The position numbers and the translations under genes are program-made. 64,000 nt of DNA from a virus. How positions within the stretch are numbered: the stretch's first letter is position 1; the number at the start of each line of letters is the position of its first letter. The notes below the pieces were generated by a model. The model was given only the letters and a program-made list of their open reading frames with translations, was not told the origin of the DNA and did not search any database. Below, piece after piece: positions 3,481-63,774 of this stretch. The stretch covers positions 1 through 64,000 of IMG/VR virus record IMGVR_UViG_3300045988_117192; one strand, written 5' to 3'.

Positions 3481-3489
3481 TAACATAAC

Positions 3490-7015: not shown

Positions 7016-7286
7016 ATACTCTTCTACGGGGGAGCTAGATAGTGTACGTATTTCTTATAATGATTTACGTATAGTTAATAGTAAACTTATAGAACTTAAT
7101 TACACTAAGCAAATTAATAATAAATTATATAATATTATACGTAATGATAGCATAATTATAAATAATTATAAAAGTGTAAATGATAATTTTAATAAAACTA
7201 TAAATAAATATAAACGTCAACGTAATGTTGCTTTTATTACTTCACTTTGTGCTATTGTTGGTATAATTTTTTCTTTTGTAAAATAA
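6945..7286 (+). CDS. small membrane protein (N- and C-terminal hydrophobic segments), 113 aa
   Basis: N-terminal MMLRNLIMIVLLSYSINLLA and C-terminal VAFITSLCAIVGIIFSFVK. Contains a forward copy of the dispersed motif (encoding SSTGEL). Confidence 0.4.
   Translation: MMLRNLIMIVLLSYSINLLAQNNKYSSTGELDSVRISYNDLRIVNSKLIELNYTKQINNKLYNIIRNDSIIINNYKSVNDNFNKTINKYKRQRNVAFITSLCAIVGIIFSFVK
7020..7038 (+). repeat. dispersed motif copy 3 (forward: TCTTCTACGGGGGAGCTAG)
   Basis: Direct read. Forms a perfect 18-bp inverted repeat with copy 2; the two bound a 201-bp segment. Confidence 0.9.
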
Positions 7287-19432: not shown

Positions 19433-19435
19433 TTA

Positions 19436-22817: not shown

Positions 22818-23240
22818 ATGAAAAGAGATAGTCTTGATAGTTTTGATGTTCTTCCTGAAGATATGATTAATTATCTTCGTTATAATGGTAGACATTTTAA
22901 TCATAAACTTTGTAGTTATGCAGTTTCTAGAATGAAATCCAAAGTTTCTTCTACGGGGGAGCTTAAATCAATCACTCCTATCACTAAAGAAGCTTTAGAT
23001 GCTAAACTAGATGATTATAATATAAAACTTAAAGAAAATCAACTTTATGATTATGTTTATGTAGCTAATATGTGTAAAGCTGATTTTCTAGGTAGTAGTA
23101 TTGATGATGAAAGACATCTTTGTTTATATGTAAAAGATGTTATAGATGATCCTGATGGTTATGATGGACTTGTATTTAATCGTTGGTATGCTGATATGTG
23201 TAGACAAGGTATTCCTATAGATTGGCATGAGTTTATTTAA
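22818..23240 (+). CDS. hypothetical protein (140 aa)
   Basis: ORF with an in-frame forward copy of the dispersed motif (VSSTGELKS). A terminator follows. Confidence 0.5.
   Translation: MKRDSLDSFDVLPEDMINYLRYNGRHFNHKLCSYAVSRMKSKVSSTGELKSITPITKEALDAKLDDYNIKLKENQLYDYVYVANMCKADFLGSSIDDERHLCLYVKDVIDDPDGYDGLVFNRWYADMCRQGIPIDWHEFI
22947..22963 (+). repeat. dispersed motif copy 5 (forward, 17-nt TCTTCTACGGGGGAGCT)
   Basis: Direct read. In-frame in gene 22818..23240. Confidence 0.9.
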
Positions 23241-23883: not shown

Positions 23884-23902
23884 TAGCTCCCCCGTAGAAG
23901 AG
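23884..23902 (-). repeat. dispersed motif copy 6 (reverse: TAGCTCCCCCGTAGAAGAG)
   Basis: Direct read. Intergenic, 50 bp upstream of gene 23951. Confidence 0.9.
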
Positions 23903-30374: not shown

Positions 30375-32212
30375 GATATAAATTAAAAAATGGAGGCAAA
30401 AGTCGTCCTAAAGCTTTATTTGGTGTAGATGGTGCGATTAATGCTGCTGCTACTTTAGCTGCTGCTGGTATGACAACTGCTGCTACTCTTAAAGCAGCAA
30501 ATCAGCAATCTAAAGCTGTTGAATCTTCTGCTAGAACACAAGCAGAAGCTATTAAAGCTCAAACTGCTAATAATACTGATCTTCAAAAAGAAAGTATTAA
30601 TTTTCAAAGACAAATAAATCAAGAAAATAGACAACAACAACAAGATATTCAAACTACTCTTCAACTTATGGCTGGTCAACAAAATATGAATGATAGGCTT
30701 AAAGCTACTCAAGAAGTTGCTAAATATGGTGGTAGACCTAAAAGAAAAAAGTTGTCTAAGATGACTTCTGATATACCTTCCTACGGGGGAGCTAGAATAC
30801 CTTTCCGTGTTACAGATGGTGGTGGAGTAATTCCAATTCAAATAAATGATGCAGGTTATGGTTTGTATGAACTTTATGGTAATGATCATGACCATTATCA
30901 CAAGACATCTGGAGGTAAATACAAATCAGGTGTTGGTATTAAATTTGCTGATGGTAGTACAATAGAAGGTGAAGGAAATCAAAATACTAAACAAGGTGAA
31001 TTACTTTATGTAACACCTTATGATAATATGTTTATATCTAAACATGATATTAAAGGTTTTAATCCTGCAGAAGCTGTTAATGAAGGTATGAATCCTCAAT
31101 ATGCTTTTGATATTCAACAACAACTTAAAGCTATTTATGGTATTAATGATGATGGTAGTAAGATTGATAAATCATCTTATAAACAAATGGCTAAATGTGG
31201 AGGACATTATAAACTTAAATGTGGTGGTCGTATTAAAAGAGTTAATGGAGGTTTTTGGCAAAATCATGCAGGAGCTACTTATAATGCTGTTGGTAATTTA
31301 CTTGGTGCAGGTATTACAGCTATAGGTAATGGTATTGCTGGTCGTAAACTTTCTAATGCTTATAATAATGCTGGTAATATATTAGCTGATGCTTATTCTC
31401 AAATGCATGGAATAGATTTATCTGAAATAAGTAAAAGTGACTATACTCCAGCTCATGTTATGGCAATTGTTAGTAATGCAGATACTAATATAAATCCTCA
31501 ATTAGAACGTATTCGTAGAGATGCTGCTGCTCAAACTAAGCAAGTAAATAATTCAACTATGAGTTCTGCTGCTAGACAACAACGTCTTGCTGGAATTAAT
31601 GATAGAAGTTTACAACGTGCTACTGAGCAATATGCTTATAAACAAAATGAAGATCAAAAAATTCAACAAGCTAATGCTGAACGTATTCAACAAGCTAGTG
31701 CAACAAATGCTCAACTTGATTCTCAAGCAAATCAAGAATATGCTAAATCTAGACTTGCTTTAATGCAATACAATAATGATATTGAAAATAGTAAGATTGC
31801 TGGAGCTGCACAAGCTAGAGCTGATGCTATGACACAAAGTAGTACAGCTAGTGCTACAGCTTGGCAAAATTCTATGAATGCTATAGGTTCTGCAATAGCT
31901 AATACAGGACAAGGTTTTGCTTCATCTTATGAAGCTATTCGTAAATCAAATGATGATTTTGCTAATACTTATGCTGGATTGGGTAATGAACAACAAGTTA
32001 AAGCTGCATTACTTCGTTATGAAAGAACTGGAGATGATAGTTATATTAATAGTTTGTTAAATAGTAATATGATTAGTGATTCAGAAAGAGTTGCTTTAAA
32101 TAGAGCTAAAGCTAATAAAATTAGAATAAAAAGAAATAAATTAAGAGCTACTCCAGGTAATATTTTACCAGATTATACAAATAATAGTAGTAATCCTAAT
32201 TATTATGCTTAA
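30371..32212 (+). CDS. tail structural protein, putative (613 aa)
   Basis: ORF overlapping upstream by 4 nt (ATGA). Contains an in-frame forward motif copy (PSYGGAR) and Q-rich helical segments. Confidence 0.5.
   Translation: MRYKLKNGGKSRPKALFGVDGAINAAATLAAAGMTTAATLKAANQQSKAVESSARTQAEAIKAQTANNTDLQKESINFQRQINQENRQQQQDIQTTLQLMAGQQNMNDRLKATQEVAKYGGRPKRKKLSKMTSDIPSYGGARIPFRVTDGGGVIPIQINDAGYGLYELYGNDHDHYHKTSGGKYKSGVGIKFADGSTIEGEGNQNTKQGELLYVTPYDNMFISKHDIKGFNPAEAVNEGMNPQYAFDIQQQLKAIYGINDDGSKIDKSSYKQMAKCGGHYKLKCGGRIKRVNGGFWQNHAGATYNAVGNLLGAGITAIGNGIAGRKLSNAYNNAGNILADAYSQMHGIDLSEISKSDYTPAHVMAIVSNADTNINPQLERIRRDAAAQTKQVNNSTMSSAARQQRLAGINDRSLQRATEQYAYKQNEDQKIQQANAERIQQASATNAQLDSQANQEYAKSRLALMQYNNDIENSKIAGAAQARADAMTQSSTASATAWQNSMNAIGSAIANTGQGFASSYEAIRKSNDDFANTYAGLGNEQQVKAALLRYERTGDDSYINSLLNSNMISDSERVALNRAKANKIRIKRNKLRATPGNILPDYTNNSSNPNYYA
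30776..30795 (+). repeat. dispersed motif copy 7 (forward variant CCTTCCTACGGGGGAGCTAG, with a 1-nt insertion)
   Basis: Direct read. In-frame in gene 30371..32212 (PSYGGAR). Confidence 0.85.
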
Positions 32213-35364: not shown

Positions 35365-38300
35365 ATGGATGTACAAAGTGTTTTTAACGCAGGTGGTACT
35401 GTTATAAAAAATCCAAGTTATACTAAAAAAAATGGTCAACCTGAATATATAACTGTAGCTGATTTAAATAATCCTGTAATACCTGAAGGTAGTAAAACAG
35501 CTGATATAATGTATCAAGCTGCTGCACAAGGTAATCAAGATATTTTAGGTCGTAATGGAGAATTAGATAAATATATTGAAAGAGGTATTACACCTACTGA
35601 TAAAAATATACCAACATTGGATAAAATGTTAGCTGATAGTCAAAGTGCTATAGCTAAATGGTTTAATGGTTTAAGTCAAGCTGTTGTCAGTGAAGTAGGT
35701 TTAGGTACTTTAAAAGGTTTTACTGATCTATTTGATTTTGTTACTAGTAAAATATTACATTTAACAGAAGATGATTATCAAAATTCTGCTAGTACTGCTA
35801 TACAAGAATGGCAAGATTATTTTGATAATAATATAGCTCCTATATATAGAGATGAAAGTCTTAATATACAAAATGGAGGTTTCAAAGATGCAGGTTGGTG
35901 GGCTAGTAATCTTCCTAGTGTAGCTAGTACTTTAACTTTATTATTTCCAGCTAAAGGTATTAGTAGTGTAGGTAAATGGATAGGTAAAACTACTAATTTA
36001 GGTAAAGCTGCAAGTAAAGCTAGACGATGGGCTACAGGAGTTAATGAAATTCAAGATGCTAATAGACTTAATAAATTACAAATAGCATTAAATAATCCTT
36101 TAAATATAACTAAAGCTAATAAAGCAGCTGAAAGTATAACTGAAGGTTTGCTTATGCGTACTATGGAAAATTATCAAGAAGCTAGAGATACAAATATTCA
36201 AATGTATCAAGAAGCTTCAGATAAACTTAATAGTATGTCAGATAATGATTATAAAGCTTGGATTGAAAAAAATAAAAATATTTTTGATAAAGACCTTGAT
36301 GTAAATAATAGAGATAAAGTTGCTAAAGCCATTGCTAAAAAAGCTGCTGATAGAACTTTTAGTATGGACTTTAGTAATGTGATTTTTGATATTATGCAAT
36401 TACATGGTCTTAAAAATATAGGAAAAGGTGTAAAAGACGCATCAGGTAGAATTGTAAATGAAGCACAAAAAACTAGTTTAACTGCTGCTAAAGCATTTGC
36501 AAAAGGTGGTACAGAAAGTGCTAAAAAAGCAGTTGAAGAAGCTGCTAAAAAACCTTTATATAAACGATTTGGTCAAGGTATTTTAGACTATGGTAAATAT
36601 AATGCTAAGACTATATTAGAAGAAGCTACAGAAGGTATAGAAGAAGCTGTAAACTATATAGCACAACAAGAAGGTCTTACTTATGGTAAAGCTATTCTTG
36701 AAGGTAATGCCAAAGATTATAGAGCTACAACAGGTATAAATAGTTATTTAACTTTAGGTATTCCTAATATAATATCTACTTGGAGTAATAGACAAGGAGA
36801 AATACATGAATATATGAAAACACCAGAACTTCAAGAAAGTGCTTTTTGGGGTGTTTTAGGTGGTGTTGTATTTCATAATGTAGGTAGTGCTTTAAATAAA
36901 GGTAAATTAGCTCTTTATAGAAAAGCTCAAGAAAAAGCTCGTGCTACTAATAGTACAACTGGTGAAAGTATTAGTGATGCTAATGGTTGGTTTAATCTTC
37001 TCGAACTTCCTGAAGATAAAGCTGCTCGTGTTGCTATAGAAAAACGTATAGCTAGACTTGAACAAGTATCTAGTGATTTGAAAAATATTGAAAATGATAT
37101 TGATATTTTTGGACAAAAAGCTGAAGATGGTACATTACCTAAATTTGATGGTGATGTAGAAACTAAAAAAGCATTGGCTCGTAGACGTATTGAAGCTGAA
37201 TTTAAAGCTAATATAGCTATGGATGCCATGAATAGTGGTACTTATAAACAATTAATTGATTATTTTAAATCTGATGAAGTTAAACAAGCAATGGTTTCTG
37301 CTGGTTTAGCTAAACAAGAAAATATAGATAGTTATACAGAAGAAACTGTAAAAGATTTAGAAGATATAAAAAATCTATATGCTAGACAATCTACTCATGT
37401 TCTTAATCAAATAGCAGCTTTAAATGCTTCTAAAAAATATGATCAAACTATTCCTCTAGAATATGCTCAAATTATAGCTAAACGTAATGTAGATAGACTT
37501 TTAAATATTAAACAACTTGATAGACAAATTGCTGATGTTGAAAGTCTTGCAGCAGAACAAGAAGCTATAACTAGAGAAACTAATCCAGATGTATTATTTG
37601 ATGAGGCTAAAAATACTACAAAATTAGCTTCTTTAATTGATATGTATGGTAGACTTACTTATGAAGGTAAAGAAATAGATAAGGCTATAGAAGAACAAGG
37701 AGCTAATTATAAATTAGATAGACAAAAAGAAAAAAATAATAGACAAAAAGAATTTATAATTAATGGAATAAAACAAACAACTTTAGCTGGTAATGATGCT
37801 GGATTATCTGCTGTATTTGCGGCTGTAAAATACGGTAGAAGTTATCGTAAAGCAGATGATGGTACTTATTATCAAGATAAAAAAGCTTTTGAAGAAACAG
37901 ATGAACAAATATTAAAGGAGGCTAAATCTATATATGATGATGATAGTTCAAATTTAAGTGATGATACTATTATACAATCTGCAAAATCTATGTTAAGTAA
38001 TGTAGATAACATTCTTGGTAAAAAAGGTTTAGCGAATGTTAATAGTACATTACTTTCACATTATGTAACTATAGGTCAACTTAAACTTCAACAAGATATT
38101 GAACGTTCTCAAATATCTAGTACTCAAACTCAAATACAGGATGATGTAGATTGGGAACATAATAATCTTAATGAAGCTCGTGCTAAAATGATTGATTTAG
38201 CTACATCTACTGTTATTAAAGCACTCAAACAATATGATGGAATCTTAACTGATAATTATGACAATCTTATAGATACTGTTTATAAGATGTATTCACAAGA

Positions 38301-41300
38301 TAAACAAGAAGCTAGACGTATTGCTGAAAAGTTTATGACAAATGATGGTAGTAAAGGTAATGTAACTGCTTCTGAATTTTTAGATGCTTTAGATGTATTT
38401 AATTTTTCTAATAGAACTAATCAAAGTCTTTATGAATATGTTACAAATATAATTGATATGTATAAAATGAGTCGTAATCAGCAAAGAGCTGAAGACACTC
38501 TAGAAGATGAGACAAGTTCTACAGAAAATCAAGAACAGATTACAGACACTGAAAATCAAAACTTGAATAATCCACCACAACCAAATAAAGAAAACGACAC
38601 AGACCAAGCAAATGGGCAAAATCAACCTATAGCACCATCATCAGAGCAACAAGAAAACCAAAACAAAGGTAAAAAGAGTAATGTTACATTTAATATTAAT
38701 AATAAAGGTAATATTGTATCTATTAAACATACTGGTAAATCCAATTCTTCTACTGCTAAAGTTATAGATAATGGAGATGGAACATATACTCTTGATATTA
38801 GTTCTAAACCTAAAAATGCACAACTTAGATATGTTATAGGAGGCTTATTTGATGGAAGTGTTGATTTAATTGATGTAGATGCTGATTGGGTTATTAGTAA
38901 AAATCCTATAGTTAAACGTAAAGGTAATGATTATATTATAATAGAAAAAGGTAAAATTAGAACTACTAAATATAATAATATAGATGAAGAAGAATATCAA
39001 TCTTTTAAGGAATTAGTTGACAGTGATGAAAATTTTAAAAATGATTTATTAAATAATCCTGATAGTGTTAGAACTACTGTTCTAGAAGTTTTAGATACAA
39101 CAGATGAAGATAAAGCTAATAGCTATATAGAACGTTATCTTGATGAAAATAAAGTTGATTCTAACTCCCCCGTAGAAGAAAGTGATGATACTTTTTTAAG
39201 TGATGGCCAAGATACTAATCAAAGTACTCAAGGTACTCAAGATACTAATCAAGGTACTCAAGAAGGTTCTAATAATCAAACACCACAAAACTCTTCTACG
39301 GGGGAGCAAGAGTCTAACTCTAGGATAAGTCCTACTACTACTCCTGCTACAACTAATGAACCTGGAAGTACAAATACTCCTTCTACTAGTACTACTAATA
39401 ATAAAACTAATGAAGATTTAGATGAGATTAGAAGAGGTATAGCTCAAACATTTGGAAAATATATTCCAGATATGAGAGTTAAAGATATAAATTTTGATGA
39501 AATTAGTAATAAAGTTGAAAAAGAACTTCTAGATATTAAAGATAGAGTTGGTTTAAGTGAAGAAGAAATTAAAGTTGAAGTAGCTAGACAAAAGCAAATG
39601 TTGAAAGATGCTCATGATAAACTTATGAGTTTACAAAGTAAACTTGCTCAAAATGGTGCTAATTTAGCTTTTGCTTCTAAACTTGAAGAAGTTGATACTA
39701 CTGATTTTAGTTTAATGTTTACTAATGCTGTGGAAGCTTTTATGTCTGAATATAAAAAGATAGTAGTTACACCTACAGTTGATGGTAGACAAGTTGTTAG
39801 ATTAGAAGATATTTTAAGAATTTGTAATAATGTTTATCCTACATCTGATATTAGTGTTGCTAAATCGATGTATAATGTTATTTATAATTATCTTAGAAGT
39901 CCTATTGGTCAAGCTAAATATTTAACTATTGATTTAAATAATGGTAATAAAGTATTAGATAATATTACTAAAACTACTGAACAACTTCAAAAAGAAGTTG
40001 ATGAACAATATGATCCTTTTAGAGTTAATATTAATGATTTTATAGAACAGGCTTTAATAAGTAATGATGATGTTAAAGATGAATATTTTAAAGCTTTAAA
40101 TTCATTGAATACAGGTGATGAACTTGATATGCTTGCAACTGATAGAGAATTAATATTTAGACATGGAAATGTTACTATAGGTAATATGCCTAAACCTAAA
40201 ATTAAAGGTGATACTTTTATTCAAATAAATGAAGGTTGGATTACCGATGTTAAATTAGATAATAAAGGTGATGTTGTAAGTTCTCTTAAACCTATATTTG
40301 AAGATATATTTTTAACAGATACTAGTGCTCATAAAGCTTTAAGAGAATTATTAATAAAAAATGCTATACTTGATAGAGGAAGTGAAAATTATAAAACTGA
40401 ATTTGATAGTTTAGTTAAATCTTTTAGTAATAATTTTGTTATTAAACAATTAGTTGAACAAGCTAGAAAAGATAAAGCTAAAGGTGAACATAAAATATTT
40501 ATTAATGATGCCAGTGGTATAATAGACTATGATAGATTATTAAATCATCTTACTAAACTTTGGAATTATACTCAAGCAGGAAATAATGCAAATAGTAAAA
40601 CCGAAGCTGAAGATAACATTAGAATTAGTTTAAATAGATGGTTTAATAATTTATATAAAACTTATAATACTACTTATAATATAACTAAAGATAGTAAAGT
40701 CAAAATTACAAAATTAAATGAAGGTCAAATTAATAGAGCTGTAGAAAAAGATGATTTAAATACTGTAGAAAATTATGATAAATTACCTTTAGTTAGAGAT
40801 GCTGTAGCAAAAAAATTTAAATGTAAATTAGGTATTGTTGAAACAAAAGAAACATATATTGATATAGCTGGAGATAATGCTTTTAATGTAAAAAAATGGA
40901 CAGCTAATAGTACATTAATTGCTGTATTTAGTAAAAATGAATTACCTGATTATATTAAAGCTATTGGTGTAAAATTATCTGAAGCTAAAAGTTTAGGTAA
41001 TAATAGTATAGTAGGTTCTATAGCTAGAGCTTCTATGATACATTTACAAGAAACTTTTCAAGAATATATAGATAAAAAAGGTTTTGGTGATATAAATAAA
41101 ATAGAAGATGTAATAAGAAGTATTATAGCTATTGTAGGTGATGAAGATAGAATACCTTTATTTAGAGCTATTTCTGGTAAATTTTTTATAGAAGACATAA
41201 ATGCTCCAAATAGTAATGCTAGAGGTATAAGTATAGTTTATAAAGGTAATAACAGAGAATTTAGACGTTTTAGAATTTATACTAATAATAAATATAATAA

Positions 41301-43008
41301 TTCTAATTTTGGTTATAAAGATACTAAAACTAATGAAACTAGTTATTTAGGTGATAAAAATAAAAATGATATAGCTTTTAATGCTGCTTTAGCTTTTTCA
41401 AGATTTATAGCAGATACTTGTAATATAAATATAAGTCGTAAAGGTATTATAAATGATAATACAAAAGCTGATATAAATAAAGGTTTTATTACTAGAAAAG
41501 ATGGTAAATTTAATATTGATATAATTAATAAAACTAAAAATAGTTTTAATCAAGAATTTGATAGTTATAATGATTATATTATTAAAGGAAACCTTATAAG
41601 AGTTAATACTAAAATAGGTGAAAACGGCAGTAATTTTACAAGAAAAGGAAATAAACAAACAGCAAATCAAATTTTATATGTATCTTTACCAACAGTAAAT
41701 GATAATAATAAAAAACTATCTACAACAAATAAAGATATTCAACCCACTTCAGATGCTGATACATTCAATAAAGTAAGACAAATTACAGAAACTAATAAAA
41801 TATCTGTTGGATTAGAAATATTTCAAACTATATTAGGTGATGAAGCTTATAATCAGTTTAAAGAAATATCTGAAGATTTTAACATATTAAATGATATTCT
41901 TCCTAAAAGAATTATGTTTGATGCTAAAATGATAGATAAACAAACTGGTAATAAACGTAGTCCTATTATTGTAACTAAAGTAAATAGAATATCTGATGTT
42001 TACGATAAAAAACAAAAGAAAATAGTTAGAAAAAATGTACTTTATGATGATTATCATAAAAAAGTAAATGGTGAACGTATTACTGCAAATATTCCAGCTT
42101 CAGAAGTTATGGTTATCGGTAATTACTTTTTAAATCAAGCTTCTTCTAATGAATTAAGCAAACGTAAAGAAATTATTAGAAAATTAATTCATGAACAATT
42201 ACATGTAAATTTTGAAAATAAAGGTATTGTTAGTTTTAAAACTATGACCGAAGTTGCTGAAATTTATGAAGAATTTAATAAACATTTAAAAGAAGATTTA
42301 AATAATTGTGATAAAAATAGTAATAAATATAAAGTTCTTAAATCTATAGATTTTTCTACTACAGGTTATAAAGATGATCGTTTAATAGAAGAATTTATAG
42401 TTGAAAGTCTTACTAATCAAACTCTTTTTAAATATCTTAATAGTATTCAAGTTGAAGATGGTAAAGATAATAAAAAAGAAGATACTTTATTTACTAAAAT
42501 CGCAAAAGTTATAGCTAAATTCTTTGGTTGGAATATAGAAGATAATTCTCTTTATATGAAAGAACTCAACGTTCTTAGAAATTTAACAAGTCGTAAAGAA
42601 GGTGAACCATTAGATAAAAATGATAATATAAAAGAAACAAATGATAGTGTTAATAATGAAACTTCTGAAGATAATAAAACTTTAAAAGATAATAAAGATT
42701 CAGAAAATAACAAAGATAGTAAAGATGATGAAAATAATGAAGTAGATACTAGTGAAGGTTTTGATATAAATTCTATAAACGAAGATTTAGATTTAGATTT
42801 AGATGATGATTATGATGAAGATGATGATTATGATGATAATAATACTAAAAAAGCTTATGGTGCTACTATTGAAGAAGTTAATGTTGATAATGAAGGTTTT
42901 AAACCAATAGTTAATCTTGATGTATTCCAAAGTAGATTACCAAATCATTTACAATCTAAATTTAAGCACTTAGCGAGCCAAGGTTGGTTTGAAATTAAGT
43001 GCAAGTAG
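35365..43008 (+). CDS. giant virion-associated protein (2547 aa), putative ejected/cargo or tail-tip protein
   Basis: An uninterrupted 7.6-kb ORF. It contains two in-frame motif copies (39162-39180 reverse, 39291-39310 forward) that flank a tandem-duplicated Q/T/N-rich segment. The C-terminal tail is acidic (DEDLDLDLDDDYDEDDDYDD). Confidence 0.6.
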   Translation: MDVQSVFNAGGTVIKNPSYTKKNGQPEYITVADLNNPVIPEGSKTADIMYQAAAQGNQDILGRNGELDKYIERGITPTDKNIPTLDKMLADSQSAIAKWFNGLSQAVVSEVGLGTLKGFTDLFDFVTSKILHLTEDDYQNSASTAIQEWQDYFDNNIAPIYRDESLNIQNGGFKDAGWWASNLPSVASTLTLLFPAKGISSVGKWIGKTTNLGKAASKARRWATGVNEIQDANRLNKLQIALNNPLNITKANKAAESITEGLLMRTMENYQEARDTNIQMYQEASDKLNSMSDNDYKAWIEKNKNIFDKDLDVNNRDKVAKAIAKKAADRTFSMDFSNVIFDIMQLHGLKNIGKGVKDASGRIVNEAQKTSLTAAKAFAKGGTESAKKAVEEAAKKPLYKRFGQGILDYGKYNAKTILEEATEGIEEAVNYIAQQEGLTYGKAILEGNAKDYRATTGINSYLTLGIPNIISTWSNRQGEIHEYMKTPELQESAFWGVLGGVVFHNVGSALNKGKLALYRKAQEKARATNSTTGESISDANGWFNLLELPEDKAARVAIEKRIARLEQVSSDLKNIENDIDIFGQKAEDGTLPKFDGDVETKKALARRRIEAEFKANIAMDAMNSGTYKQLIDYFKSDEVKQAMVSAGLAKQENIDSYTEETVKDLEDIKNLYARQSTHVLNQIAALNASKKYDQTIPLEYAQIIAKRNVDRLLNIKQLDRQIADVESLAAEQEAITRETNPDVLFDEAKNTTKLASLIDMYGRLTYEGKEIDKAIEEQGANYKLDRQKEKNNRQKEFIINGIKQTTLAGNDAGLSAVFAAVKYGRSYRKADDGTYYQDKKAFEETDEQILKEAKSIYDDDSSNLSDDTIIQSAKSMLSNVDNILGKKGLANVNSTLLSHYVTIGQLKLQQDIERSQISSTQTQIQDDVDWEHNNLNEARAKMIDLATSTVIKALKQYDGILTDNYDNLIDTVYKMYSQDKQEARRIAEKFMTNDGSKGNVTASEFLDALDVFNFSNRTNQSLYEYVTNIIDMYKMSRNQQRAEDTLEDETSSTENQEQITDTENQNLNNPPQPNKENDTDQANGQNQPIAPSSEQQENQNKGKKSNVTFNINNKGNIVSIKHTGKSNSSTAKVIDNGDGTYTLDISSKPKNAQLRYVIGGLFDGSVDLIDVDADWVISKNPIVKRKGNDYIIIEKGKIRTTKYNNIDEEEYQSFKELVDSDENFKNDLLNNPDSVRTTVLEVLDTTDEDKANSYIERYLDENKVDSNSPVEESDDTFLSDGQDTNQSTQGTQDTNQGTQEGSNNQTPQNSSTGEQESNSRISPTTTPATTNEPGSTNTPSTSTTNNKTNEDLDEIRRGIAQTFGKYIPDMRVKDINFDEISNKVEKELLDIKDRVGLSEEEIKVEVARQKQMLKDAHDKLMSLQSKLAQNGANLAFASKLEEVDTTDFSLMFTNAVEAFMSEYKKIVVTPTVDGRQVVRLEDILRICNNVYPTSDISVAKSMYNVIYNYLRSPIGQAKYLTIDLNNGNKVLDNITKTTEQLQKEVDEQYDPFRVNINDFIEQALISNDDVKDEYFKALNSLNTGDELDMLATDRELIFRHGNVTIGNMPKPKIKGDTFIQINEGWITDVKLDNKGDVVSSLKPIFEDIFLTDTSAHKALRELLIKNAILDRGSENYKTEFDSLVKSFSNNFVIKQLVEQARKDKAKGEHKIFINDASGIIDYDRLLNHLTKLWNYTQAGNNANSKTEAEDNIRISLNRWFNNLYKTYNTTYNITKDSKVKITKLNEGQINRAVEKDDLNTVENYDKLPLVRDAVAKKFKCKLGIVETKETYIDIAGDNAFNVKKWTANSTLIAVFSKNELPDYIKAIGVKLSEAKSLGNNSIVGSIARASMIHLQETFQEYIDKKGFGDINKIEDVIRSIIAIVGDEDRIPLFRAISGKFFIEDINAPNSNARGISIVYKGNNREFRRFRIYTNNKYNNSNFGYKDTKTNETSYLGDKNKNDIAFNAALAFSRFIADTCNINISRKGIINDNTKADINKGFITRKDGKFNIDIINKTKNSFNQEFDSYNDYIIKGNLIRVNTKIGENGSNFTRKGNKQTANQILYVSLPTVNDNNKKLSTTNKDIQPTSDADTFNKVRQITETNKISVGLEIFQTILGDEAYNQFKEISEDFNILNDILPKRIMFDAKMIDKQTGNKRSPIIVTKVNRISDVYDKKQKKIVRKNVLYDDYHKKVNGERITANIPASEVMVIGNYFLNQASSNELSKRKEIIRKLIHEQLHVNFENKGIVSFKTMTEVAEIYEEFNKHLKEDLNNCDKNSNKYKVLKSIDFSTTGYKDDRLIEEFIVESLTNQTLFKYLNSIQVEDGKDNKKEDTLFTKIAKVIAKFFGWNIEDNSLYMKELNVLRNLTSRKEGEPLDKNDNIKETNDSVNNETSEDNKTLKDNKDSENNKDSKDDENNEVDTSEGFDINSINEDLDLDLDDDYDEDDDYDDNNTKKAYGATIEEVNVDNEGFKPIVNLDVFQSRLPNHLQSKFKHLASQGWFEIKCK
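39162..39180 (-). repeat. dispersed motif copy 8 (reverse variant TAACTCCCCCGTAGAAGAA)
   Basis: Direct read. In-frame in the 2547-aa gene (NSPVEES). Confidence 0.85.
39291..39310 (+). repeat. dispersed motif copy 9 (forward variant CTCTTCTACGGGGGAGCAAG)
   Basis: Direct read. Forms an inverted pair with copy 8; the two bound a 148-bp segment containing a tandem 30-nt duplication. Confidence 0.85.
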
Positions 43009-46000: not shown

Positions 46001-49000
46001 CTGTAGCTTTGTCTCATTATTTTAATTTTAGACAAGATGAAGATGGTTATTATAGTATAGAACTTAAAAAACTTCCAAATGATGAAATTTCTAAAGAACC
46101 AAAGTTCAAAGAAGGTATGTCTAATACTAAAGGTTATAAATTTTATCATTTAGGTTCTAATGGTACTGTTTTAGAAAAAAATGGAGAAGGTTTTAAACTT
46201 GCTGGTAATGTGTTTCATAGTAATAAGTTTACTTTAGCTGTTGAAAGTGCAGATGGTACTATTAGTAAAAAAAATTATCTAGATGAAATTATAAGTAATG
46301 ATTTAGATAAAAGATATGATGGTTCAATCAATCTTCTCTACGGGGGAGCTATGAGGATAGTAGCTACTCTAGAAGAAGATGGTAATTATAATGTAGAAGA
46401 TGTTATTTTTAGTGATCTTCAACAAGAGAAAATAAATAAAGCTCTTTCAGATTTTCTTACAGAATATCAAAAACAAGCTATTAATAAAATAGATAGTTAT
46501 AAAAACTTTATTCAAGGAGTTGATATTACTAGTGAAAATATAACAAGTTTTGCTATTAATAATCTTCTAATGCACTATAATTATGATGAATTATTTGAAG
46601 GTAATACTAAATTTTATAAAGATAGTCAAACTATTTTAAAACGTGCTAAAGAATATCAAGGTTCTGGTGTACCTTATGGTATTGCTAATTATAATATTTT
46701 TAATAATGAAGATTTATCTGATGTAACAAAACATTCATTTCTTAATAATGGCACTATAGAAGAAACTAGTAAAGATTCTGAAGGTAAAGAAATAATTAAT
46801 AAAGTTAGTATTCAAGATTTATTTAAAGGTACTTTATTTGAAGGTACTACTCAACGATATGGTTTTAGAGGTGTTACCATTAAAAATACTCAACGTACAA
46901 ATGTATCTGCTCTTGAAGAACTTGTTAAAAAACTTGTAAAAGATTCAAAAATAGATGAAGAAGCTGCTAGAGAAATTCTTTTTGGTCCTATTGTAATTAA
47001 AAATGGTAAAATAGTTAGAGATAAAGAAGGAAATCCTGTTCGTAAAGGTGGTTTTACTGAAACTAAAGTTAATGATGCTCAATCTTATATAACTGTTCAA
47101 GAATGGGTTCGTCGTATTTCAGCTCGTGGACAACTTCAACGCTATCTTCCTTTAATAAAAAAAATAATTGAAGCTGATAAAAATCCTGATATTAAGCTTG
47201 ATGCTAAGACCATTAAAGAATTTGTTCAAGTACAAAAAAATTTTTATTATGATATGCATTATGATAAAAATTATGGTATTTATGTTCCTCGTCAAATTAA
47301 AAATGCTGAATTTGTACTTATACCTAGTCTTATAAAAGGTACACAACTTGAATATGTGTATAATATGATGAGAGAAGGCAATATTGACCAACTTAATACT
47401 ATTGAAACTAGTAAAGCAGCTAATGAAGAAGTTCTTACTATTTGGGATAATGATGCTAAAATTAAAGGTTTAGATGGTGTTGTTGATGAAGATGAAATAG
47501 CTAAAGCTACTAGTAAGTATGCTAGACAACTTGAAGAAAATGCTCAAATATATTCTTATAATAATTTATATACTCAGCAAGAAACACCTCAACATATGAA
47601 TGCTGAAAATAAAGCTGGTATTCAACTTATGAAGAAATTGGTTGATAATCTTCCTGATGATGATAGTGATCTTGGTAAACTTAAAAAAGAATATTTTAAA
47701 TTATTTACTCGCAATATAGAAGAATCTTTTACTGATTTACTTGATAATTTTGAAATTCCTTATGATGAAAATGGTAATATTGAATTAGATGATCTTAATC
47801 ATATTAAAAATGTTAATCTAAAAGTTTTTTATAATAAACTTAAAGAAGAATTAATGCGTACAGGAATTGATAGTAACTTAAATGATTATGTTACTATTCC
47901 TGAAGGTTCTAGTATACCTAGTATGCCTGCTGCTCTTATGAACAATGTTCTTACTAAGTTTGAATCTGTTGTTCAAAGTTTATTTAATAATAATATTACT
48001 AGACAAAAACTTCCAGGTTTTCATGCTGCTCAAATTACAAATGTTGGTTGGAGTCCTTTAAATGAAACTATAGAAGATGTTAGTTACAATAAAACTTTAA
48101 AATATCATCCTGAAGGTGAACCTTATATTGAAGTAATGCTTCCAGCATCATTTTTAGGAATAAACAAAAATGATGAGCATTATAAAAATATGACAAATAA
48201 AGAAATTATAGCTGAACTTGAAGCTAAAGGTTTAGATATGATTATTGGTTATCGTATTCCTACTGAAGGCAAACAATCAGTATGTAATATGAAAGTTGTT
48301 GGTATAACTGATGATGCTTTTGGTTCTACTATTGTTGTTCCTGATGATTGGGTTTCTCAAACAGGTTCTGACTTTGATATTGATAGTGTTTATGGTATTC
48401 AATTTGAAACTTATAAAACTAAATCTGGTGAAGTATTTCCTGTAGAATATAAGGAAGCTAAAAATAGAACTAAATATGATTGGTTTAATTATATTCTTAA
48501 ATTTGCAAAAGATGATAGTTTAGATCCTAATGTTAAAAGTAAAATAGTTGATGCTAAAAATAAAATAAAATCTGAACTTCAAACTGAATTAAATAAATTA
48601 CAAAATGAAGAAAAAGAAGTTTGGAATAAATTTGATAAAAATGCTCAAAAGATTATTAAACAACGTCAAGATAAAATAACTCAAGCTATAAAAAAACAAG
48701 GTCTTGAAGGCGAAGATGCTTATCATTATAGACTTACTAAACTTATTAGTTTTTTAAATAATACTAAAAAAACTGCTAAAAATAAAAATACTAATTTTAT
48801 TAAAATAATTGATGAAACTATACCTACTATTAAAGCTATTGATGATTTTATAATAACTCAAGAAGGTAAATATAATGAAAAAAGTAAAAAAAGAATAGAT
48901 AGTATTCTTAATGAAAAACTTGATACATTTAATAATGCTGCTAAAAATGGTGGACTTCTTACATTAGATGACTATCTTAAATCTGAAAATGATTTAAAAG

Positions 49001-52000
49001 CTAATACTAGAAAAGCTAGAAATAATAAACTTCTTAGTATTATGAAAGAAATTCTTTCAGATCCTAAAACTCTTGAAGAAAATCTTTCTCGTTCTAATTA
49101 TGATGATTTAGTTCGTGCTTGTAATGCTGTAATGAATCCTAATGTTAAAGCAGCTAGAGATGGTAGAAGTCCTTATAATGTATTTGACCAAATAGATTAT
49201 CAAGAAGATGCGATGAGTGGTGCTAAACTTAAAGCTTTTAGTGTTACACTTGATACTTTTTGTTCTGTTTGTAATAAAGTTAGACCAACATTAGAAAAAC
49301 CTGTTTATATTGTTTATAATACAGATGATTATAAAAATCCTCAAGCTATTTTAGATAGATTTAATGCAGGTAAGCTTAAAGATAAAGCTAAAACTTTTGC
49401 TATAAAACATAGTACTTATGGGTGGAGCAAAGATAATAGAAATGTAGCAGGTAAAATTCTTACAGCTTATTCTTCTCAAACTACAGCATTTATTCTTGAT
49501 GCTATCAAAGAAGGAGCTATACCTAATGTTAATGATTATACATTTTCAGTATTTAAAACTCTTGCTAATATAGGTACAGATTATAATACTTCTGTTGCAT
49601 TTATTATGCAACCTGGTATTGAAGAAATTGTAAAAGCTAATAACAGTAATAAATCTGTTTATTCTACAACTTCTGGTAATCCTATTCATCAAGCTATTAG
49701 AACTATTGCTAAACGATTAGAAATAAATGCTGAAGATAATGTTCCTATTACAACAGTACTTGCTTCTATTAATAAAAAATATAATAAAGAATTTAATAAA
49801 ATATTTAAACAACAAGGTGATGATACTATTACTATTAGTTTAAAAGAAGAAGATACTAAAAATCTTCCTATAATAGCTTCTATGCTTGTTGATAGACTTA
49901 AAAACACAGGTAAGTTTAGTAAAAGCTCCCCCGTAGAGAAGTCTTTGTTTGATTTAGGTGTTATACTTAGTTTTAATAAATTACATGATACAGCTAATAC
50001 TATAGGTGATATAGCTAGATGTTGTAATCCTGATAGATTTGGTGCTAAACAAACTGTTTTTGAAACTCGTCAAGTATTTACTAGTATAGATCAAACTATG
50101 TTTAATCAAGAAGTTTCTCCTGATACTGGTAGTATTATTAGACAATTAAGAGAACCAGTACTTTCTGTTAATGGTAAACATATATTAGCATCTATATATC
50201 CAGGCAGTGATGATATTAATAGTGATAGTAATGGTATAATTAATAATTTACTTAGAACTAACAGAATTGCTGAAAGTAGTTATCCATCATTATATGCTTT
50301 CTTAAAATATGCTTCTGCTACTAGTATTGTTGTTGCTAAAACAATATTTGATACGCAAGATGATGGTTTTGTAAAACTTATAACAGATTTTAAAGATGTA
50401 CTTAATGGTTATAATCAAACTATTAATGAAGATACATATAATGATTTACAAAAATATGTATTAAGTTCTTTATATAAACAAGTTCCTGCAATTAGATATC
50501 TTGTTAATGTTAGAACTAATGATAAAGGAGAAATTGAGATAACTCAAAATATTCCTACAGAAATCGATAAAATAGAAGAAGCTTCTAAAGCAGAAATTAC
50601 TAGAATTTATGGTTATGAACGTGATAATAGTATTTCTATTATTAATAAAGAAACCTATAAAGACGATAATGGTAAAACTAAAACTAAAACTATAATTACT
50701 AATTTTGAAGTAAAAGATATTAATAATCCTACAAAGGATGAAATGGAACTTTATGAACAACTTTCTCCTGCTCAAAAAGTTCAATTTATAAAATCTAATT
50801 TTAGTAATGCTGGTATATTTAGTTTACTTAATGTTAGTCTATTTAATAGTACTGCTAGAGGTAAATGGGTTGGTATGCAAACTTTAGAATATAAAGAACA
50901 AAATATAAATCCTAATGTAGTTTATGCTGAATTTAGAAAAGCTTTTTATAATAATAATCCTTTAATTGTTTCTGCTGCTATTGATTTAGTTAAATATGCT
51001 GCTCAAGTTGAAGGAATGAGAATGACTGCTACAGCTATTAATAAAATTATAGATAATAAATGTCTTGTACAACCTTTTGGTAGAAATGGATTAGGTTTTG
51101 TAGATAGTATTAAACAAACTATGAATGATATCAAAAATGGTAAAGGACATTTTGGTTATAATTTAGATGAAAATAATGATGTTAATTCTGAAGTAGAAAC
51201 TCTTTATGAAAATTATCTTAGAAGTCATCCTGAAACTAAAGGTATTAAAACTGTTTATTTAAGTAAAAGAACTCAAAGTAAATATGGATTATATAAACAT
51301 GATTTTGGTACTTATTATTTAAAGGTTAATGATGATAAGGATTCTCCTGAAGATAATCTTAAAGCTTTTAATCAAAGATTAGCTAATATAGGTATTAAAA
51401 CTTATCTTCCATTAAGTGATAAATACAAGACTAATAAATATATTAGATTTAGAGATAGTAAAAGTAATAATTTATACAGAATAGTTGAAGGTGATGGATA
51501 TATTGTTTTATATCCTTTATCTAAGCTAGAAGCTAATGAAAATAGTGAATGGTCTGCTAATGAAGATAATAATAGAGGTATTCTTAGTAAAAGAGCATAT
51601 ACTGTATTAACTAATGATTTTGCTAAAGTAAAAGATAGTCAAGAATTTACACATAACTTTATAAAAGAACGTATGGAACATTATAAAGAAACTGGTGAAA
51701 AGAAGACTTTCTTTTATAAAGAACGTAAGAATTATAATAGAAATGTTCCTGCTGCTGATTTTAGTATTGAAAAAGAAGCTGAAGATGGAGGTTCTATGGC
51801 TATTCTTCGTCAGCAAATAATTAATCATTTTAAAAATCCTCTTGCAGGTAGATTATTTGTTAAAAATGGTGCTTTAACTAATTATATATTTAGTCCTGGT
51901 GTAGAAAATGGTAGTGAACAAACTATTCATTTTGGTAATAATGATACTAGACGATTTATATTATCTATTCCCGATAATTTAAATAAAGTAGAAAAACAAT

Positions 52001-57419: not shown

Positions 57420-57442
57420 TTAATAATAAATTAAATAATATT

Positions 57443-59725: not shown

Positions 59726-59733
59726 ACATTTAA

Positions 59734-62160: not shown

Positions 62161-62382
62161 AAAATGAAAAGAAAATCTTTAGAATTTTAGAAAATCATAG
62201 ATTAACTTTTTCAAATTATGAAAATAAAAAACTCGCTAAGTACTTGATACTCAACGAGTTATAACAAAAATCCCAGTCCTTATAATATATATAATATAAT
62301 AAATATAATAAGGTACATCTAATACTGCAAATATAAGAATAAGATTAATAATAACAAAGAGTATAGAATAAAATTACATAAC

Positions 62383-62401
62383 TCTTCTACGGGGGAGCTA
62401 G
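62383..62401 (+). repeat. dispersed motif copy 13 (forward, canonical)
   Basis: Direct read. Intergenic, to the left of the small membrane gene 62458..62706. Confidence 0.9.
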
Positions 62402-62709: not shown

Positions 62710-63774
62710 TTAAGCAATTTTTAAATTAACAGCTGAAACTAGTGCTTTATTCATATTTCTGTTAGCTCCCCCGTAGAGAAGTGAATCAACACGTTTTTCA
62801 TTTTCTAAATTAGCAACATTAGAATAAAAACCTGTAACAGCATTATAAGCACCCCAAGCAGTACCTGCAATATCTTTTTGACCAATACCATCCATATAAT
62901 ATTCAAACATATTAGTAATTTGATTTATTTTACGTTGACTGATATTAGTATGTTCCATAAGAAGATACTCACTATTAAATAATTTTTTATAACCATTTTT
63001 GTTATCATAATCAAGAAGAGCTAATCTTTCAGCTTCAGTAAGTTGTAAATCAGCAATATATTTCATTACTTCTTCATCAGACATTTTAATAGTTAGAAGA
63101 CTATCATAAAGTTGTTTAGCATTATTAGCATGTTCACAAGCTATTTTTAAAATTTCACTACCACGTTCAATTTTATCTCTAGCAGATTTAGTATGTTTAA
63201 TACGAATATATGAATGAGCACTATTTAAAGCACTATTTAACATATTAGTACAAATAACTCTAATAGGAGAAAATAAAATATTTATAGAAGAACTACCATC
63301 ATGAGAATTACTAAATACAAGATAATTATCTACTACATCTTTTCCTACTTTAGTAGTATAAGGTAATTTAGCACTAACAAATATTTTATGTCCATAACCA
63401 AATTTACCAGCTTTATCCCATTGAGCTTTATTAACTCCAATAGCATCATTAAAGAAATTAAAAGCTTCAATATTTTGAATAACTTCATATTTATCTTTAA
63501 CTAAACCTAAAGGTGTATTAGTATCTGTACGATAAGTAGCATAAGCTTTAGGACAATCTCTATAAATATAACCATCTTTAGCAAACTCACCACCTAATTC
63601 ATTAAATTTATTATTACCGTTAATACTAAAAGGCATACGAGCAACTAAATCACATTTATCCACATAAAAATCAAGTCCAGCTTTTTGCATAACTTCTTGA
63701 GCTGTAGTACAATCTGAAACATCTTTTCCTATACCACTAGCCCAAGGTAAACCGTTAATATTATATTTACTCAT
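62710..63774 (-). CDS. hypothetical protein (354 aa)
   Basis: Long minus-strand ORF. An in-frame motif copy near the C-terminus encodes LLYGGAN. No confident family assignment. Confidence 0.55.
   Translation of the reverse strand: MSKYNINGLPWASGIGKDVSDCTTAQEVMQKAGLDFYVDKCDLVARMPFSINGNNKFNELGGEFAKDGYIYRDCPKAYATYRTDTNTPLGLVKDKYEVIQNIEAFNFFNDAIGVNKAQWDKAGKFGYGHKIFVSAKLPYTTKVGKDVVDNYLVFSNSHDGSSSINILFSPIRVICTNMLNSALNSAHSYIRIKHTKSARDKIERGSEILKIACEHANNAKQLYDSLLTIKMSDEEVMKYIADLQLTEAERLALLDYDNKNGYKKLFNSEYLLMEHTNISQRKINQITNMFEYYMDGIGQKDIAGTAWGAYNAVTGFYSNVANLENEKRVDSLLYGGANRNMNKALVSAVNLKIA
62763..62781 (-). repeat. dispersed motif copy 14 (reverse variant TAGCTCCCCCGTAGAGAAG)
   Basis: Direct read. In-frame near the 3' end of minus-strand gene 62710..63774 (LLYGGAN). 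Confidence 0.9.

Follow-up and report, generated by a model that had tools for sequence, protein, structure and literature searches.

The window analysed here, 64,000 nucleotides of a viral genome, derives from an Obtuvirinae crAss-like phage and includes a 2547-aa open reading frame homologous to a crAss-like protein annotated as 'RNAP-associated protein fused to zincin protease', an annotation because of which the product would be regarded as a virion cargo protein. No DNA-level similarity of this giant gene to GenBank phages was found, and the giant proteins of the compared genomes are only ~28% identical. The BLASTP alignment of the 2547-aa protein to its cr271_1 homologue breaks at a linker that is probably disordered, the residues S, T, N, Q, G, P, E and D making up 0.78-0.97 of its 40-aa windows. 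Two inverted arms, GATTCTAACTCCCCCGTAGAAGA to the left and TCTTCTACGGGGGAGCAAGAGTC to the right, were located here by sequence inspection and a repeat finder; each is 23 nt long, they are 87% complementary and 112 nt apart, and a perfect core of 15 nt pairs 39165-39179 with 39292-39306. The preliminary description had placed the arms at 39162-39180 and 39291-39310, which the repeat finder bears out to within a few bases, and its translation and maintained frame likewise hold, the open interior reading NSPVEE, SDDTFLSDGQDTNQSTQGTQDTNQGTQEGSNNQTPQN, SSTGEQ. NSPVEE is encoded by the left arm and closes the conserved N-terminal half of the giant protein, and SSTGEQ is encoded by the right arm. Both arms are kept in the same orientation in 6/6 relatives, the left arm being conserved together with its flanks. 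The 148-bp structure consists of two opposed copies of a genome-wide signal, situated at both borders of the linker; these and the other features of the window are collected in the table.

Table. Copies of the signal and associated features in the 64,000-nucleotide window
Feature	Position	Strand	Remarks
Forward noncoding copy (3489-3507) with degenerate inverted partner (3516-3534)	3489..3534	+	just past gene end; RNA hairpin in which the partner pairs the G-run via G-U wobbles; compensatory changes in cr271_1 and ctcc615
Reverse copy, encodes SSPVEE	6838..6856	-	after membrane anchor, 101-aa ORF (6710-7015)
Forward copy, encodes SSTGEL	7019..7037	+	113-aa ORF (6945-7286), right after its signal or lipoprotein-like N-terminus; orthologous in many relatives
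Forward copy in gene upstream of major capsid gene	13939..13957	+	~1.1 kb before capsid start; most widely conserved motif site
Forward copy, encodes VSSTGELK	22946..22964	+	140-aa ORF
Noncoding reverse copy	23884..23902	-	
Forward copy in 613-aa gene, read PSYGGAR	30776..30794	+	cr271_1 orthologue in another frame, LLRGSY
2547-aa ORF, giant protein	35365..43008	+	homology to crAss-like annotated protein
Low-complexity inter-domain linker, ~residues 1260-1360	39142..39444	+	composition, BLASTP break
Reverse-oriented signal copy (left arm)	39157..39179	-	core CTCCCCCGTAGAAGA at 39165-39179
In-frame Q/N/S/T/D/G-rich interior	39180..39291	+	length polymorphic among relatives
Degenerate coding microsatellite, ~9-nt unit CAAGGTACT/CAAGATACT	39208..39262	+	repeat analysis
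Forward-oriented signal copy (right arm)	39292..39314	+	core TCTTCTACGGGGGAG at 39292-39306
Forward copy, encodes LLYGGA	46333..46351	+	4761-aa giant gene, relative position 0.23; degenerate inverted partner nearby; orthologous in all genomes compared
Reverse copy, encodes SSPVEK	49923..49941	-	4761-aa gene, relative position 0.48; orthologous in cr271_1, ctcc615 and cr8_1
Reverse copy (57374-57392) with pairing segment	57374..57419	-	directly past stop codon of giant gene; GTAGAAGAGTTG (57384-57395) pairs with CAACTCTTCTAC (57408-57419); placement and hairpin with compensatory changes kept in cr271_1 and ctcc615, placement in cr8_1
Weak winged-helix (RepL-like) gene	61576-62160	-	
Noncoding forward copy	62382..62400	+	222 nt upstream of weak RepL-like gene
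Copy at 3' end of DUF932 gene (62710-63774)	62763..62781	-	sense orientation, encodes LLYGGAN; orthologous in ctcc615

The interior had been thought to carry a 30-nt tandem duplication. The segments 39208-39232 and 39238-39262 are indeed 96% identical at 30-nt spacing, but Tandem Repeats Finder gives only a degenerate array with a period of 9 or 21, and the repeat is a small coding microsatellite with no clean 30-nt duplication. The suspected length polymorphism among close relatives is real: the interior measures 102, 105 or 114 nt, lengths that are all divisible by 3, and the length differences among relatives correspond to copies of a 9-nt unit, whose number differs in L202. The interior is ordinary, fast-evolving, slippage-prone coding sequence between two copies of a family-wide cis-signal.

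The GC-rich motif that forms the arms can be written as AACTCTTC-TACG-GGGGAG-CTAGA, with a core of 18 nt and a full consensus of up to ~27 nt, which in the window reads ACATAA-CTCTTC-TACG-GGGGAG-CTAGA. With two or fewer mismatches to TCTACGGGGGAG the motif is found 14 times in the window, where 0.42 would be expected and none of 100 shuffles gave more than 3, and p-crAssphage, BK010471, has 31 copies against 0.18 expected, so that shuffles of both the window and p-crAssphage rule out a chance origin. Most copies in the window are single rather than paired. The preliminary description had likened the pair in the giant gene to a structure at 6838-7038, where motif copies are found at 6838(-) and 7019(+), and it correctly recognised the motif as the conserved unit, the interiors of the two pairs being unrelated.

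Beyond the window, cr271_1 and ctcc615 have 17-19 copies each and cr8_1 has 15 in its first 50 kb, the signal being kept at 14-31 evenly spaced places per genome, prototype crAssphage included. Gene positions and orientations of the copies are orthologous across Obtuvirinae and Crudevirinae, with some difference in copy positions between genera. At a density of ~1 copy per 3-5 kb and intervals of ~3-6 kb, the spacing CV is 0.43, 0.36 and 0.62, compared with ~0.93 under random placement (P<0.0002, P<0.0002 and P=0.04). The motif also occurs in clade dialects in which all copies shift in concert (GGGGGAG, GGGGGGG/GGGCGG, GGGAGG and CCTC(T/C)ACGGGG(G/A)GT), and its conservation reaches past any hairpin into the ACAT... 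and ...CTAGA flanks. It is phage-specific: a survey of 185,579 bacterial genomes gave only 2 exact matches, at least one of which is a mis-binned crAss-like contig ('Bacilli'), and a host-derived element, a CRISPR repeat or a REP is ruled out by these counts. The motif is absent from crAss001 (Steigviridae), the published data for which are therefore not transferable.

Motif orientation does not track transcription. Coding copies in four genomes number ~36 sense to 19 antisense, counts that include orthologous sites and so are not independent; the sense excess arises because the reverse complement has stops in two of its three frames, and in p-crAssphage, where this stop-codon constraint is weaker, the ratio is 11 sense to 9 antisense. 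By a hand count, orientation in p-crAssphage alternates in 21/30 transitions, against 14.6 expected.

Codon usage shows that selection at the nucleotide level maintains the signal. Among 56 distinct sequences of one site, the motif codons are ACG in 48/51, GGG in 50/50 and GAG in 30/32 cases, whereas elsewhere in that gene conserved Thr codons are ACG in 1/51 and conserved Gly codons GGG in 0/161 cases; Thr ACG, Gly GGG and Glu GAG are thus near-invariant at the motif although the genome is AT-rich. The commonest motif variant is the nonsynonymous change GAG>GGG, and one orthologous copy changes reading frame between the window and cr271_1. A protein-level motif (for instance, a protease site SSTGE) was rejected, since the copies extend to noncoding DNA and, within genes, are read in three forward frames and in reverse; the kept rare codons and the frame change between orthologues also speak against it. 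The signal is placed wherever proteins tolerate it, that is, in linkers, just past signal peptides, and in intergenic DNA.

We consider it possible, at a little less than an even chance, that the Intestiviridae carry an unrecognised genome-wide code of ~14-31 evenly spaced 20-27-nt copies, in any frame or orientation and in lineage dialects, that is read by a putative phage factor. On the same tentative footing, the motif may be a recognition site for a phage-encoded sequence-specific factor that would read it on DNA regardless of the direction of transcription. Its genomic behaviour resembles that of bacterial DNA uptake sequences in even spacing, use of both orientations, concerted dialects and permissive coding frames, an analogy of distribution only, and at gene ends the inverted pairs may serve at the same time as RNA stem-loops or terminators. 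The process served would, as a guess, lie in the handling of the genome itself, for example in starting or restarting replication, in recognising self DNA, or in packaging and organising the genome, and not in the expression of particular genes; a candidate reader is the RepL-like winged-helix protein, whose gene adjoins motif pairs.

A second reading places the signal at the level of RNA: each copy would form a small, stable cUACGg-capped hairpin and each pair a long stem, in sense or antisense transcripts, and these could act in 3'-end formation, termination, processing or decay protection, perhaps together with an RNA-binding protein of the phage; comparable elements would be the C(UUCG)G hairpins of T4 and the T7 RNase III sites. 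All dialects consist of a pyrimidine tract followed by YACG and a G-run, an RNA hairpin is predicted in every one of them, and C and T are the only alternatives in the 5' arm, which is what pairing of that arm with G would lead one to expect. The UACG-capped hairpin of the window type reaches -6.9 kcal/mol (z -3.2; 1/200 shuffles as stable), but that of p-crAssphage is no better than shuffles (z -0.75), and the GGGCGG dialect introduces a C-C mismatch into the stem. The three innermost stem pairs are pairable in 132/132 instances; for the outer pairs -5:+8 and -6:+9 pairing is more frequent than in shuffles (P=0.03 and P<0.0005), a weak support that is confounded by phylogeny and clade structure. 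However, the unpaired flanks are conserved too. The hairpins formed by gene-end copies show compensatory changes and G-U wobbles on the strand of sense orientation and run into U/A-rich tails; for these sites at the least, such features speak for a role at the level of RNA. The 39162/39291 pair would fold the mRNA into a ~25-bp stem with a 112-nt loop, and predicted folds of the window sequence and of a relative both contain this long-range stem (z -5.8 and -5.9), an A>G change in the relative preserving a U-G pair, yet a strong stem within an essential 7.6-kb ORF has no obvious benefit. As a rho-independent terminator the pair was rejected, for it lies inside an ORF and has a 112-nt loop and no U-tract; some copies at gene ends or in relatives do fit that definition. 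Coding copies have no U-tracts, the canonical hairpin-plus-U terminators of the window do not carry the motif (a scan of 1-20000 gave 10 terminator-like sites, none with the motif, and no excess of sigma-70 promoters), and about one third to one half of the copies are antisense to their host gene, in orientations that are conserved. Rfam returned only two tRNAs at gathering score and no sub-threshold match overlapping a motif copy; the resemblance that we take the motif to have to 16S rRNA helix 14 (CUCC-UACG-GGAG) is treated as coincidental reuse of a stable tetraloop. On balance an RNA-level element is unlikely as the explanation of the whole set of copies, though by no means negligible.

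Rather less probable is that the motif is addressed to the giant RNA polymerase of the phage itself, as a promoter or as a sequence-specific site of termination or pausing, in which case copies in the two orientations would insulate against run-on transcription or drive antisense RNAs. T7-type promoter sets are likewise ~23 nt long and asymmetric, with clade dialects, a G-run at +1 and copies in coding sequence. The long asymmetric consensus and the concerted shifts of its dialects would suit such a signal, as would the likeness of CTAC|GGGGGAG to the initiation region of phage promoters and the divergent pair 95751-/95869+ of p-crAssphage, which falls exactly in the divergent intergenic region between two gene blocks; moreover, no promoter is known for crAss-type virion polymerases. 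However, orientation is unrelated to gene direction, many copies lie deep in long genes and far from gene starts, and crAss001 packages such a polymerase yet lacks the motif. A replication element read on single strands, serving as a priming or (re)initiation site for a phage primase or RNA primer, is very unlikely. With copies on either strand, the two templates would both be served, and an inverted pair would act as a bidirectional origin; analogues are the G4-type ssi signals, the hairpin promoters of N4 and the CSBII G-run of mitochondria. The even spacing, the two orientations with their excess of alternation, and a process independent of transcription accord with this, and pairs adjoin both RepL-like genes of p-crAssphage, gp43 and gp88, and lie upstream of the RepL-like gene of the window; but a single copy has no stable fold as ssDNA (-0.6 to 0 kcal/mol, no better than shuffles in any dialect tested), and known DnaG-type primases need only trinucleotides. 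For want of a stable ssDNA fold, an N4-type DNA-hairpin promoter or an ssi signal acting by ssDNA hairpin was rejected.

The preliminary description had favoured a small mobile or recombinogenic inverted-repeat element, inserted in frame in the cargo gene and expanding, a reading that is now highly improbable; such an element would be comparable to a MITE or an RPE. What suggested it was the presence of inverted arms around a variable, length-polymorphic, in-frame interior, to which can be added a lineage-specific reverse copy, absent at 39162 in cr271_1, ctcc615 and cr8_1, and the partial difference in copy positions between genera. Against an inserted module, all homologues examined, from four genera and p-crAssphage, have a low-complexity mid-protein linker (relative position 0.45-0.52) with a forward copy in it (cr271_1, ctcc615, cr8_1 and p-crAssphage), the more distant genera having the same disordered linker with the forward copy only; because the low-complexity region is uniformly present, which the preliminary description itself had named as a ground for refutation, the insertion reading is refuted. 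Nor does the motif itself behave as mobile: its copies occupy orthologous positions in kept orientation in genomes with giant proteins of such low identity, and the fixed sites and orientations therefore indicate purifying selection, over family-level divergence, rather than current mobility. Copies are mostly single, with unrelated interiors and no shared internal sequence, and the six closest relatives include no empty-site variant. The annotations of cr271_1, ctcc615, cr8_1 and p-crAssphage list no transposase, and no transposase, recombinase, reverse transcriptase or, on unsystematic inspection, target-site duplication is evident. The lineage-specific reverse copy speaks for gain of motif copies over long timescales. 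An intragenic inverton, in which a recombinase would flip the segment enclosed by the arms and so alter the protein or turn it off, is barely credible. Bacteroidales and their phages are rich in invertons, and a perfect 15-bp inverted repeat does surround a short intragenic segment, but the flipped segment would contain six in-frame stop codons, 7/7 natural sequences have the same orientation, and no invertase or site-specific recombinase is annotated in four related complete genomes (the ORFs of the window were partly scanned); furthermore, a recombinase acting on 14 copies in both orientations would scramble the genome. A diversity-generating retroelement was rejected as well, the repeats being inverted and not direct, the relatives having no annotated reverse transcriptase, and the differences from relatives including indels, where substitutions alone would be expected. 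There is no mobile insertion and no inverton at 39157-39314, and no mobile cassette in the cargo gene, which removes a false lead.

A literature search, which may have overlooked motifs presented in figures alone, found no mention of the motif, and the signal apparently has not been described before. The only crAss promoter motif described is that of the middle promoters of phi14:2, a member of the beta-crassvirinae; it is sigma-70-like and differs from the present motif, and the early transcripts of phi14:2 have no common motif. If the proposed code is true, it would serve a genome-level process (self-DNA recognition, replication initiation or restart, or polymerase control) in a way undescribed for any phage. 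The prototype crAssphage is among the most abundant human-associated viruses. To our knowledge, the replication of crAss-like phages and the way in which the giant RNA polymerase that they inject locates its targets are largely unknown, and few such phages have been cultured; an element that is conserved, evenly spaced, easily scored and present in p-crAssphage itself may offer a handle on replication and polymerase targeting. The motif also explains the GC-rich islands of rare codons (ACG-GGG-GAG) in AT-rich crAss genes, which might otherwise be mistaken for insertions, it marks linker positions in giant cargo proteins, and its dialects may serve as lineage markers.

Comparison with known systems brings out partial likenesses. 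The promoters of the N4 virion RNA polymerase share with the present case a giant injected RNA polymerase and a small conserved hairpin-capable element, but N4 has three promoters, at the early genome end, in one direction and as DNA hairpins, whereas the crAss motif is dispersed, occurs in both orientations and does not fold as DNA. T7-like promoters and RNase III sites form sets of ~10-20 near-identical asymmetric ~20-nt elements per genome, some of them coding and covarying with lineage, as here, but the T7 elements all follow transcription and lie at gene boundaries, which the crAss copies do not. The stoperators of cluster A mycobacteriophages and the C1 operators of phage P1 likewise comprise dozens of dispersed asymmetric sites, which in their case bind protein; they are, however, 13-17 bp long, situated mainly in short intergenic gaps and oriented with transcription, and they belong to temperate phages with a known repressor, whereas no repressor or lysogeny module was seen here. 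Rickettsia palindromic elements, MITEs and the GC clusters of yeast mtDNA are also GC-rich and palindromic and lie in frame within genes of AT-rich genomes, encoding tolerated peptides, but they are 50-150 bp long with conserved interiors and presence/absence polymorphism, whereas here only the ~20-nt arm is conserved, copies are mostly single and sites are anciently orthologous. The extra-stable tetraloop hairpins of the C(UUCG)G type, which Tuerk and co-workers reportedly described in 1988 from the intercistronic regions of phage T4, resemble the crAss motif in their cUNCGg tetraloop (here UACG), in a short G/C-containing stem, in belonging to an AT-rich phage and in the location of some copies past gene ends; they differ in that here the whole 18-27 nt is conserved and not the fold alone, and in that the copies are mostly intragenic, many of them antisense, at orthologous positions across a virus family.

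The uptake sequences of Pasteurellaceae (USS) and Neisseriaceae (DUS) have a short asymmetric core in a longer consensus, are over-represented in both orientations with even spacing and clade dialects, lie in tolerated frames or weakly constrained protein regions, and form inverted pairs that act as terminator-like stems at gene ends. The crAss motif differs in residing in the genome of a lytic phage and not in a competent bacterium, with no uptake machinery, and in its density, ~1 per 3-5 kb compared with ~1 per kb in USS/DUS. It shares with them the design of core and consensus, the abundance and over-representation in both orientations, the even spacing, the lineage dialects, the inverted pairs with terminator-like stems past genes and the placement of its copies within genes.

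By its gene complement the window belongs to a crAss-like phage. Matches to crAss PHROG families were obtained for the terminase, the portal and the major capsid protein. The last of these shares 92% identity with its counterpart in cr271_1 (an uncultured phage; Hacihdavirus, Obtuvirinae, Intestiviridae), 89% with that in ctcc615 (Wotdevirus), 76% with that in cr8_1 and 67% with that in p-crAssphage (BK010471.1). The window and cr271_1 have their genes in collinear order. The G+C content is 20-33%, and the window has no suppressor tRNA and therefore gives no sign of stop-codon reassignment. The 2547-aa ORF that holds the inverted motif pair is homologous to an 'RNAP-associated protein fused to zincin protease', an annotation from which its product would be a virion cargo; it shares only ~28% identity with its cr271_1 homologue, and a search of GenBank phages for similarity to the ORF at the DNA level detected none. 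The antisense ORF inside the major capsid gene probably arises from codon bias and does not represent a gene.

The inverted pair itself is real: its arms, 23 nt each and 87% complementary, have a perfect 15-nt core in common and enclose 112 nt that are in frame and encode the Q/N/S/T-rich peptide quoted in the preliminary description. The 30-nt duplication reported there is correct as to spacing, but the repeat is 25 nt long (96% identical) and sits within a degenerate array with a 9-nt unit. A Q/N/S/T/E-rich linker carrying the forward motif copy is found mid-protein in all homologues examined, and the BLASTP alignment to cr271_1 breaks exactly at this linker; the reverse copy at 39162 is confined to this lineage. 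In six relatives (77-95% amino-acid identity) taken from IMG/VR and ENA assemblies, the two arms are retained together with their flanks and in unchanged orientation. The interior does vary in length, measuring 102, 105 or 114 nt and so remaining divisible by three; between the window and the closest relative the difference consists of copies of the 9-nt unit. Because of this variation the interior reads as a slippage-prone coding linker. The proposal of an inserted, expanding mobile module was mistaken; the pair is one instance of a dispersed signal. Intragenic inversion of the inter-arm segment was also rejected, as flipping would bring in six stop codons. In RNA predictions the arms pair as a long-range stem (-54.3 kcal/mol, z -5.8, in the window; z -5.9 in one relative).

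The TCTACGGGGGAG motif occurs in 14 copies in the window against 0.42 expected, with a consensus from aligned copies of approximately ACATAA-CTCTTC-TACG-GGGGAG-CTAGA, in which information is concentrated at positions -6 to +11 with no conservation further out. There are 17-18 copies in cr271_1, ~19 in ctcc615 and 15 in 50 kb of cr8_1, the last in a clade-specific version, or dialect, tACATaCCTTT-TACG-GGG(G/C)GG-CTaga. In the cr8_1 clade this dialect has two subtypes within one genome: GGGGGGG, whose copies are mostly sense to the genes, and GGGCGG, most of whose copies are antisense or paired. The p-crAssphage dialect, CCATCCTC-(T/C)ACG-GGG(G/A)GT..., is present 31 times against 0.18 expected, including six inverted pairs (e.g. 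95751-/95869+, 28083-/28177+, 22907-/22932+); one divergent pair falls exactly in the divergent intergenic region next to RepL gp88, and a second pair is located upstream of RepL gp43. A search of Bacteroides phage crAss001 (Steigviridae; MH675552.1, 1-50000) for YACGGGG gave zero copies. A different 9-mer, CTCCAGAAG, is over-represented there (14 copies in 50 kb, ~89-fold). It occurs in either orientation, chiefly within coding sequence, and contains CTCCAG, the complement of the BpmI/GsuI site. Among 185,579 bacterial genomes the exact 19-mer matched only twice: JAFRAK010000011.1 (93,767 bp, from a MAG labelled 'Bacilli bacterium') has tblastx homology to the giant gene of the window and is therefore a crAss-like phage genome that binning has placed in a bacterial MAG, and for the second, JAZSIL010000032.1, no such match was reported.

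Copies recur at orthologous sites, which identifies the motif, with high confidence, as a family-wide, positionally conserved signal. The start of ORF 57395-58894 is probably an ATG near 57445 (…AATATTATGGCTAAAAAA…).

Features of the window and motif sites in common with related genomes (rel., relative position in gene)
Feature	Position	Strand or sense	Remarks
2547-aa ORF	35365-43008		
Arms of inverted pair	39157-39179, 39292-39314		
Second pair	6838, 7019	-, +	Named in preliminary description; present
Two small ORFs	6710-7015, 6945-7286	+	Overlapping, just upstream of terminase gene; one motif copy each, right after anchor
Terminator	13328-13366		After portal gene; hairpin plus T-tract, 18-bp AT-rich stem; no signal
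310-aa ORF	15322-16254	-	Inside major capsid gene; antisense ORF annotated at same place in ctcc615 (55050-56270)
Terminator	19408-19432		Canonical hairpin plus T-tract, perfect bidirectional palindrome (19.4 kb); no signal
ORF	57395-58894		Listed GTG start (57395) within conserved hairpin 3' of giant gene
tRNA-Asn(GTT), tRNA-Gln(TTG)	59654-59805	+	Side by side, end of structural block
194-aa ORF	61576-62160	-	Motif copies 222 and 603 nt upstream
Largest gene (4.2-4.8 k aa)	rel. 0.20-0.23	sense	All five genomes
Largest gene	rel. 0.45-0.48	antisense	Obtuvirinae
Largest gene	immediately 3' of stop codon	antisense	Obtuvirinae
2.3-2.7 k-aa gene of the pair	rel. 0.45-0.52	sense	All five genomes
2.3-2.7 k-aa gene of the pair	rel. 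0.76-0.85	antisense	Four genomes
Capsid gene	~1.1 kb upstream	sense	Most of 33 full-length IMG/VR relatives; p-crAssphage gp75
SNF2/helicase gene	rel. 0.36	antisense	cr271_1, ctcc615, p-crAssphage
Uracil-DNA glycosylase and DUF932 genes			Further common sites

Judged from sequence comparison, selection acts on the motif nucleotides and not on the encoded peptide. In 56 distinct sequences of the site that precedes the capsid gene, threonine is ACG in 48 of 51 motif codons against 1 of 51 conserved codons elsewhere in that gene, glycine is GGG in 50 of 50 against 0 of 161, and glutamate is GAG in 30 of 32 and mixed elsewhere (32 GAG vs 22 GAA at one conserved codon). The commonest variant here, GAG to GGG, is nonsynonymous and lengthens the G-run, and an orthologous copy in the 613-aa gene reads PSYGGAR in the window and LLRGSY in cr271_1. 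Copies are also found in noncoding DNA and in reverse orientation, where the window-type motif has a single stop-free frame (SSPVEE). Coding copies occupy permissive places: low-complexity linkers, the residues just after signal or membrane anchors (the two small ORFs before the terminase gene) and the point where a variable N-terminal region gives way to a conserved domain. These two ORFs look like a spanin-type pair: one has an N-terminal membrane anchor, and the other has an N-terminus resembling a signal or a lipoprotein (LLSCS in relatives) and a membrane segment at its C-terminus.

An RNA hairpin is suggested by the retention in all dialects of a pyrimidine tract, YACG and a G-run, which are predicted to fold into a small UACG-capped hairpin whose 5' arm alternates solely between C and T, facing invariant G. 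At gene ends, moreover, longer hairpins incorporate the motif, either as an arm or as their apex; from genus to genus these hairpins show compensatory changes as well as G-U wobbles on the sense strand, and U/A-rich tails follow them. Against a purely RNA-based role on the sense strand, orientation is unrelated to gene direction once reverse-complement stop codons are allowed for (coding copies ~36 sense to 19 antisense overall, 11:9 in p-crAssphage), conservation is as strong in antisense as in sense copies, unpaired flanks are conserved as well, the p-crAssphage hairpin is no more stable than its shuffles, and the canonical terminators of the window lack the motif. An Rfam search returned no family matching it.

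Folded as single-stranded DNA the motif gave no structure, which speaks against hairpin promoters of the N4 type and priming signals of the ssi type. Motif loci are more evenly spaced than random (CV 0.43, 0.36 and 0.62 against ~0.93), adjacent copies tend, by hand count, to alternate in orientation, and the sharing of a dialect by every copy in a genome implies that the signal has co-evolved with one trans-acting reader. Since these features together match the distribution of uptake sequences, the reading favoured, with low confidence as to function, is a signal in duplex DNA that would be recognised by a phage-encoded factor acting on the whole genome; the use of inverted pairs as RNA stems would be a secondary co-option. 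A possible reader of this signal, or replication initiator, is the product of the 194-aa ORF, whose winged-helix/MarR/HTH_36 matches are weak and below threshold and which is distantly similar to 'RepL' gp43 of p-crAssphage (pairwise E=1e-6); a winged-helix/RepL-like gene adjoins motif pairs in both the window and p-crAssphage.

Full-text searches and a set of crAss-phage papers gave no description of the motif, though motifs shown in figures only could be missed; the one promoter motif published for crAss phages resembles a sigma-70 element and comes from another subfamily. The element is rated as belonging among dispersed genomic recognition signals, already a known kind of element, with the 39162/39291 pair as one instance. 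Bacterial uptake sequences are known for such a genomic distribution, and the motif resembles them in behaviour, with no homology claimed.
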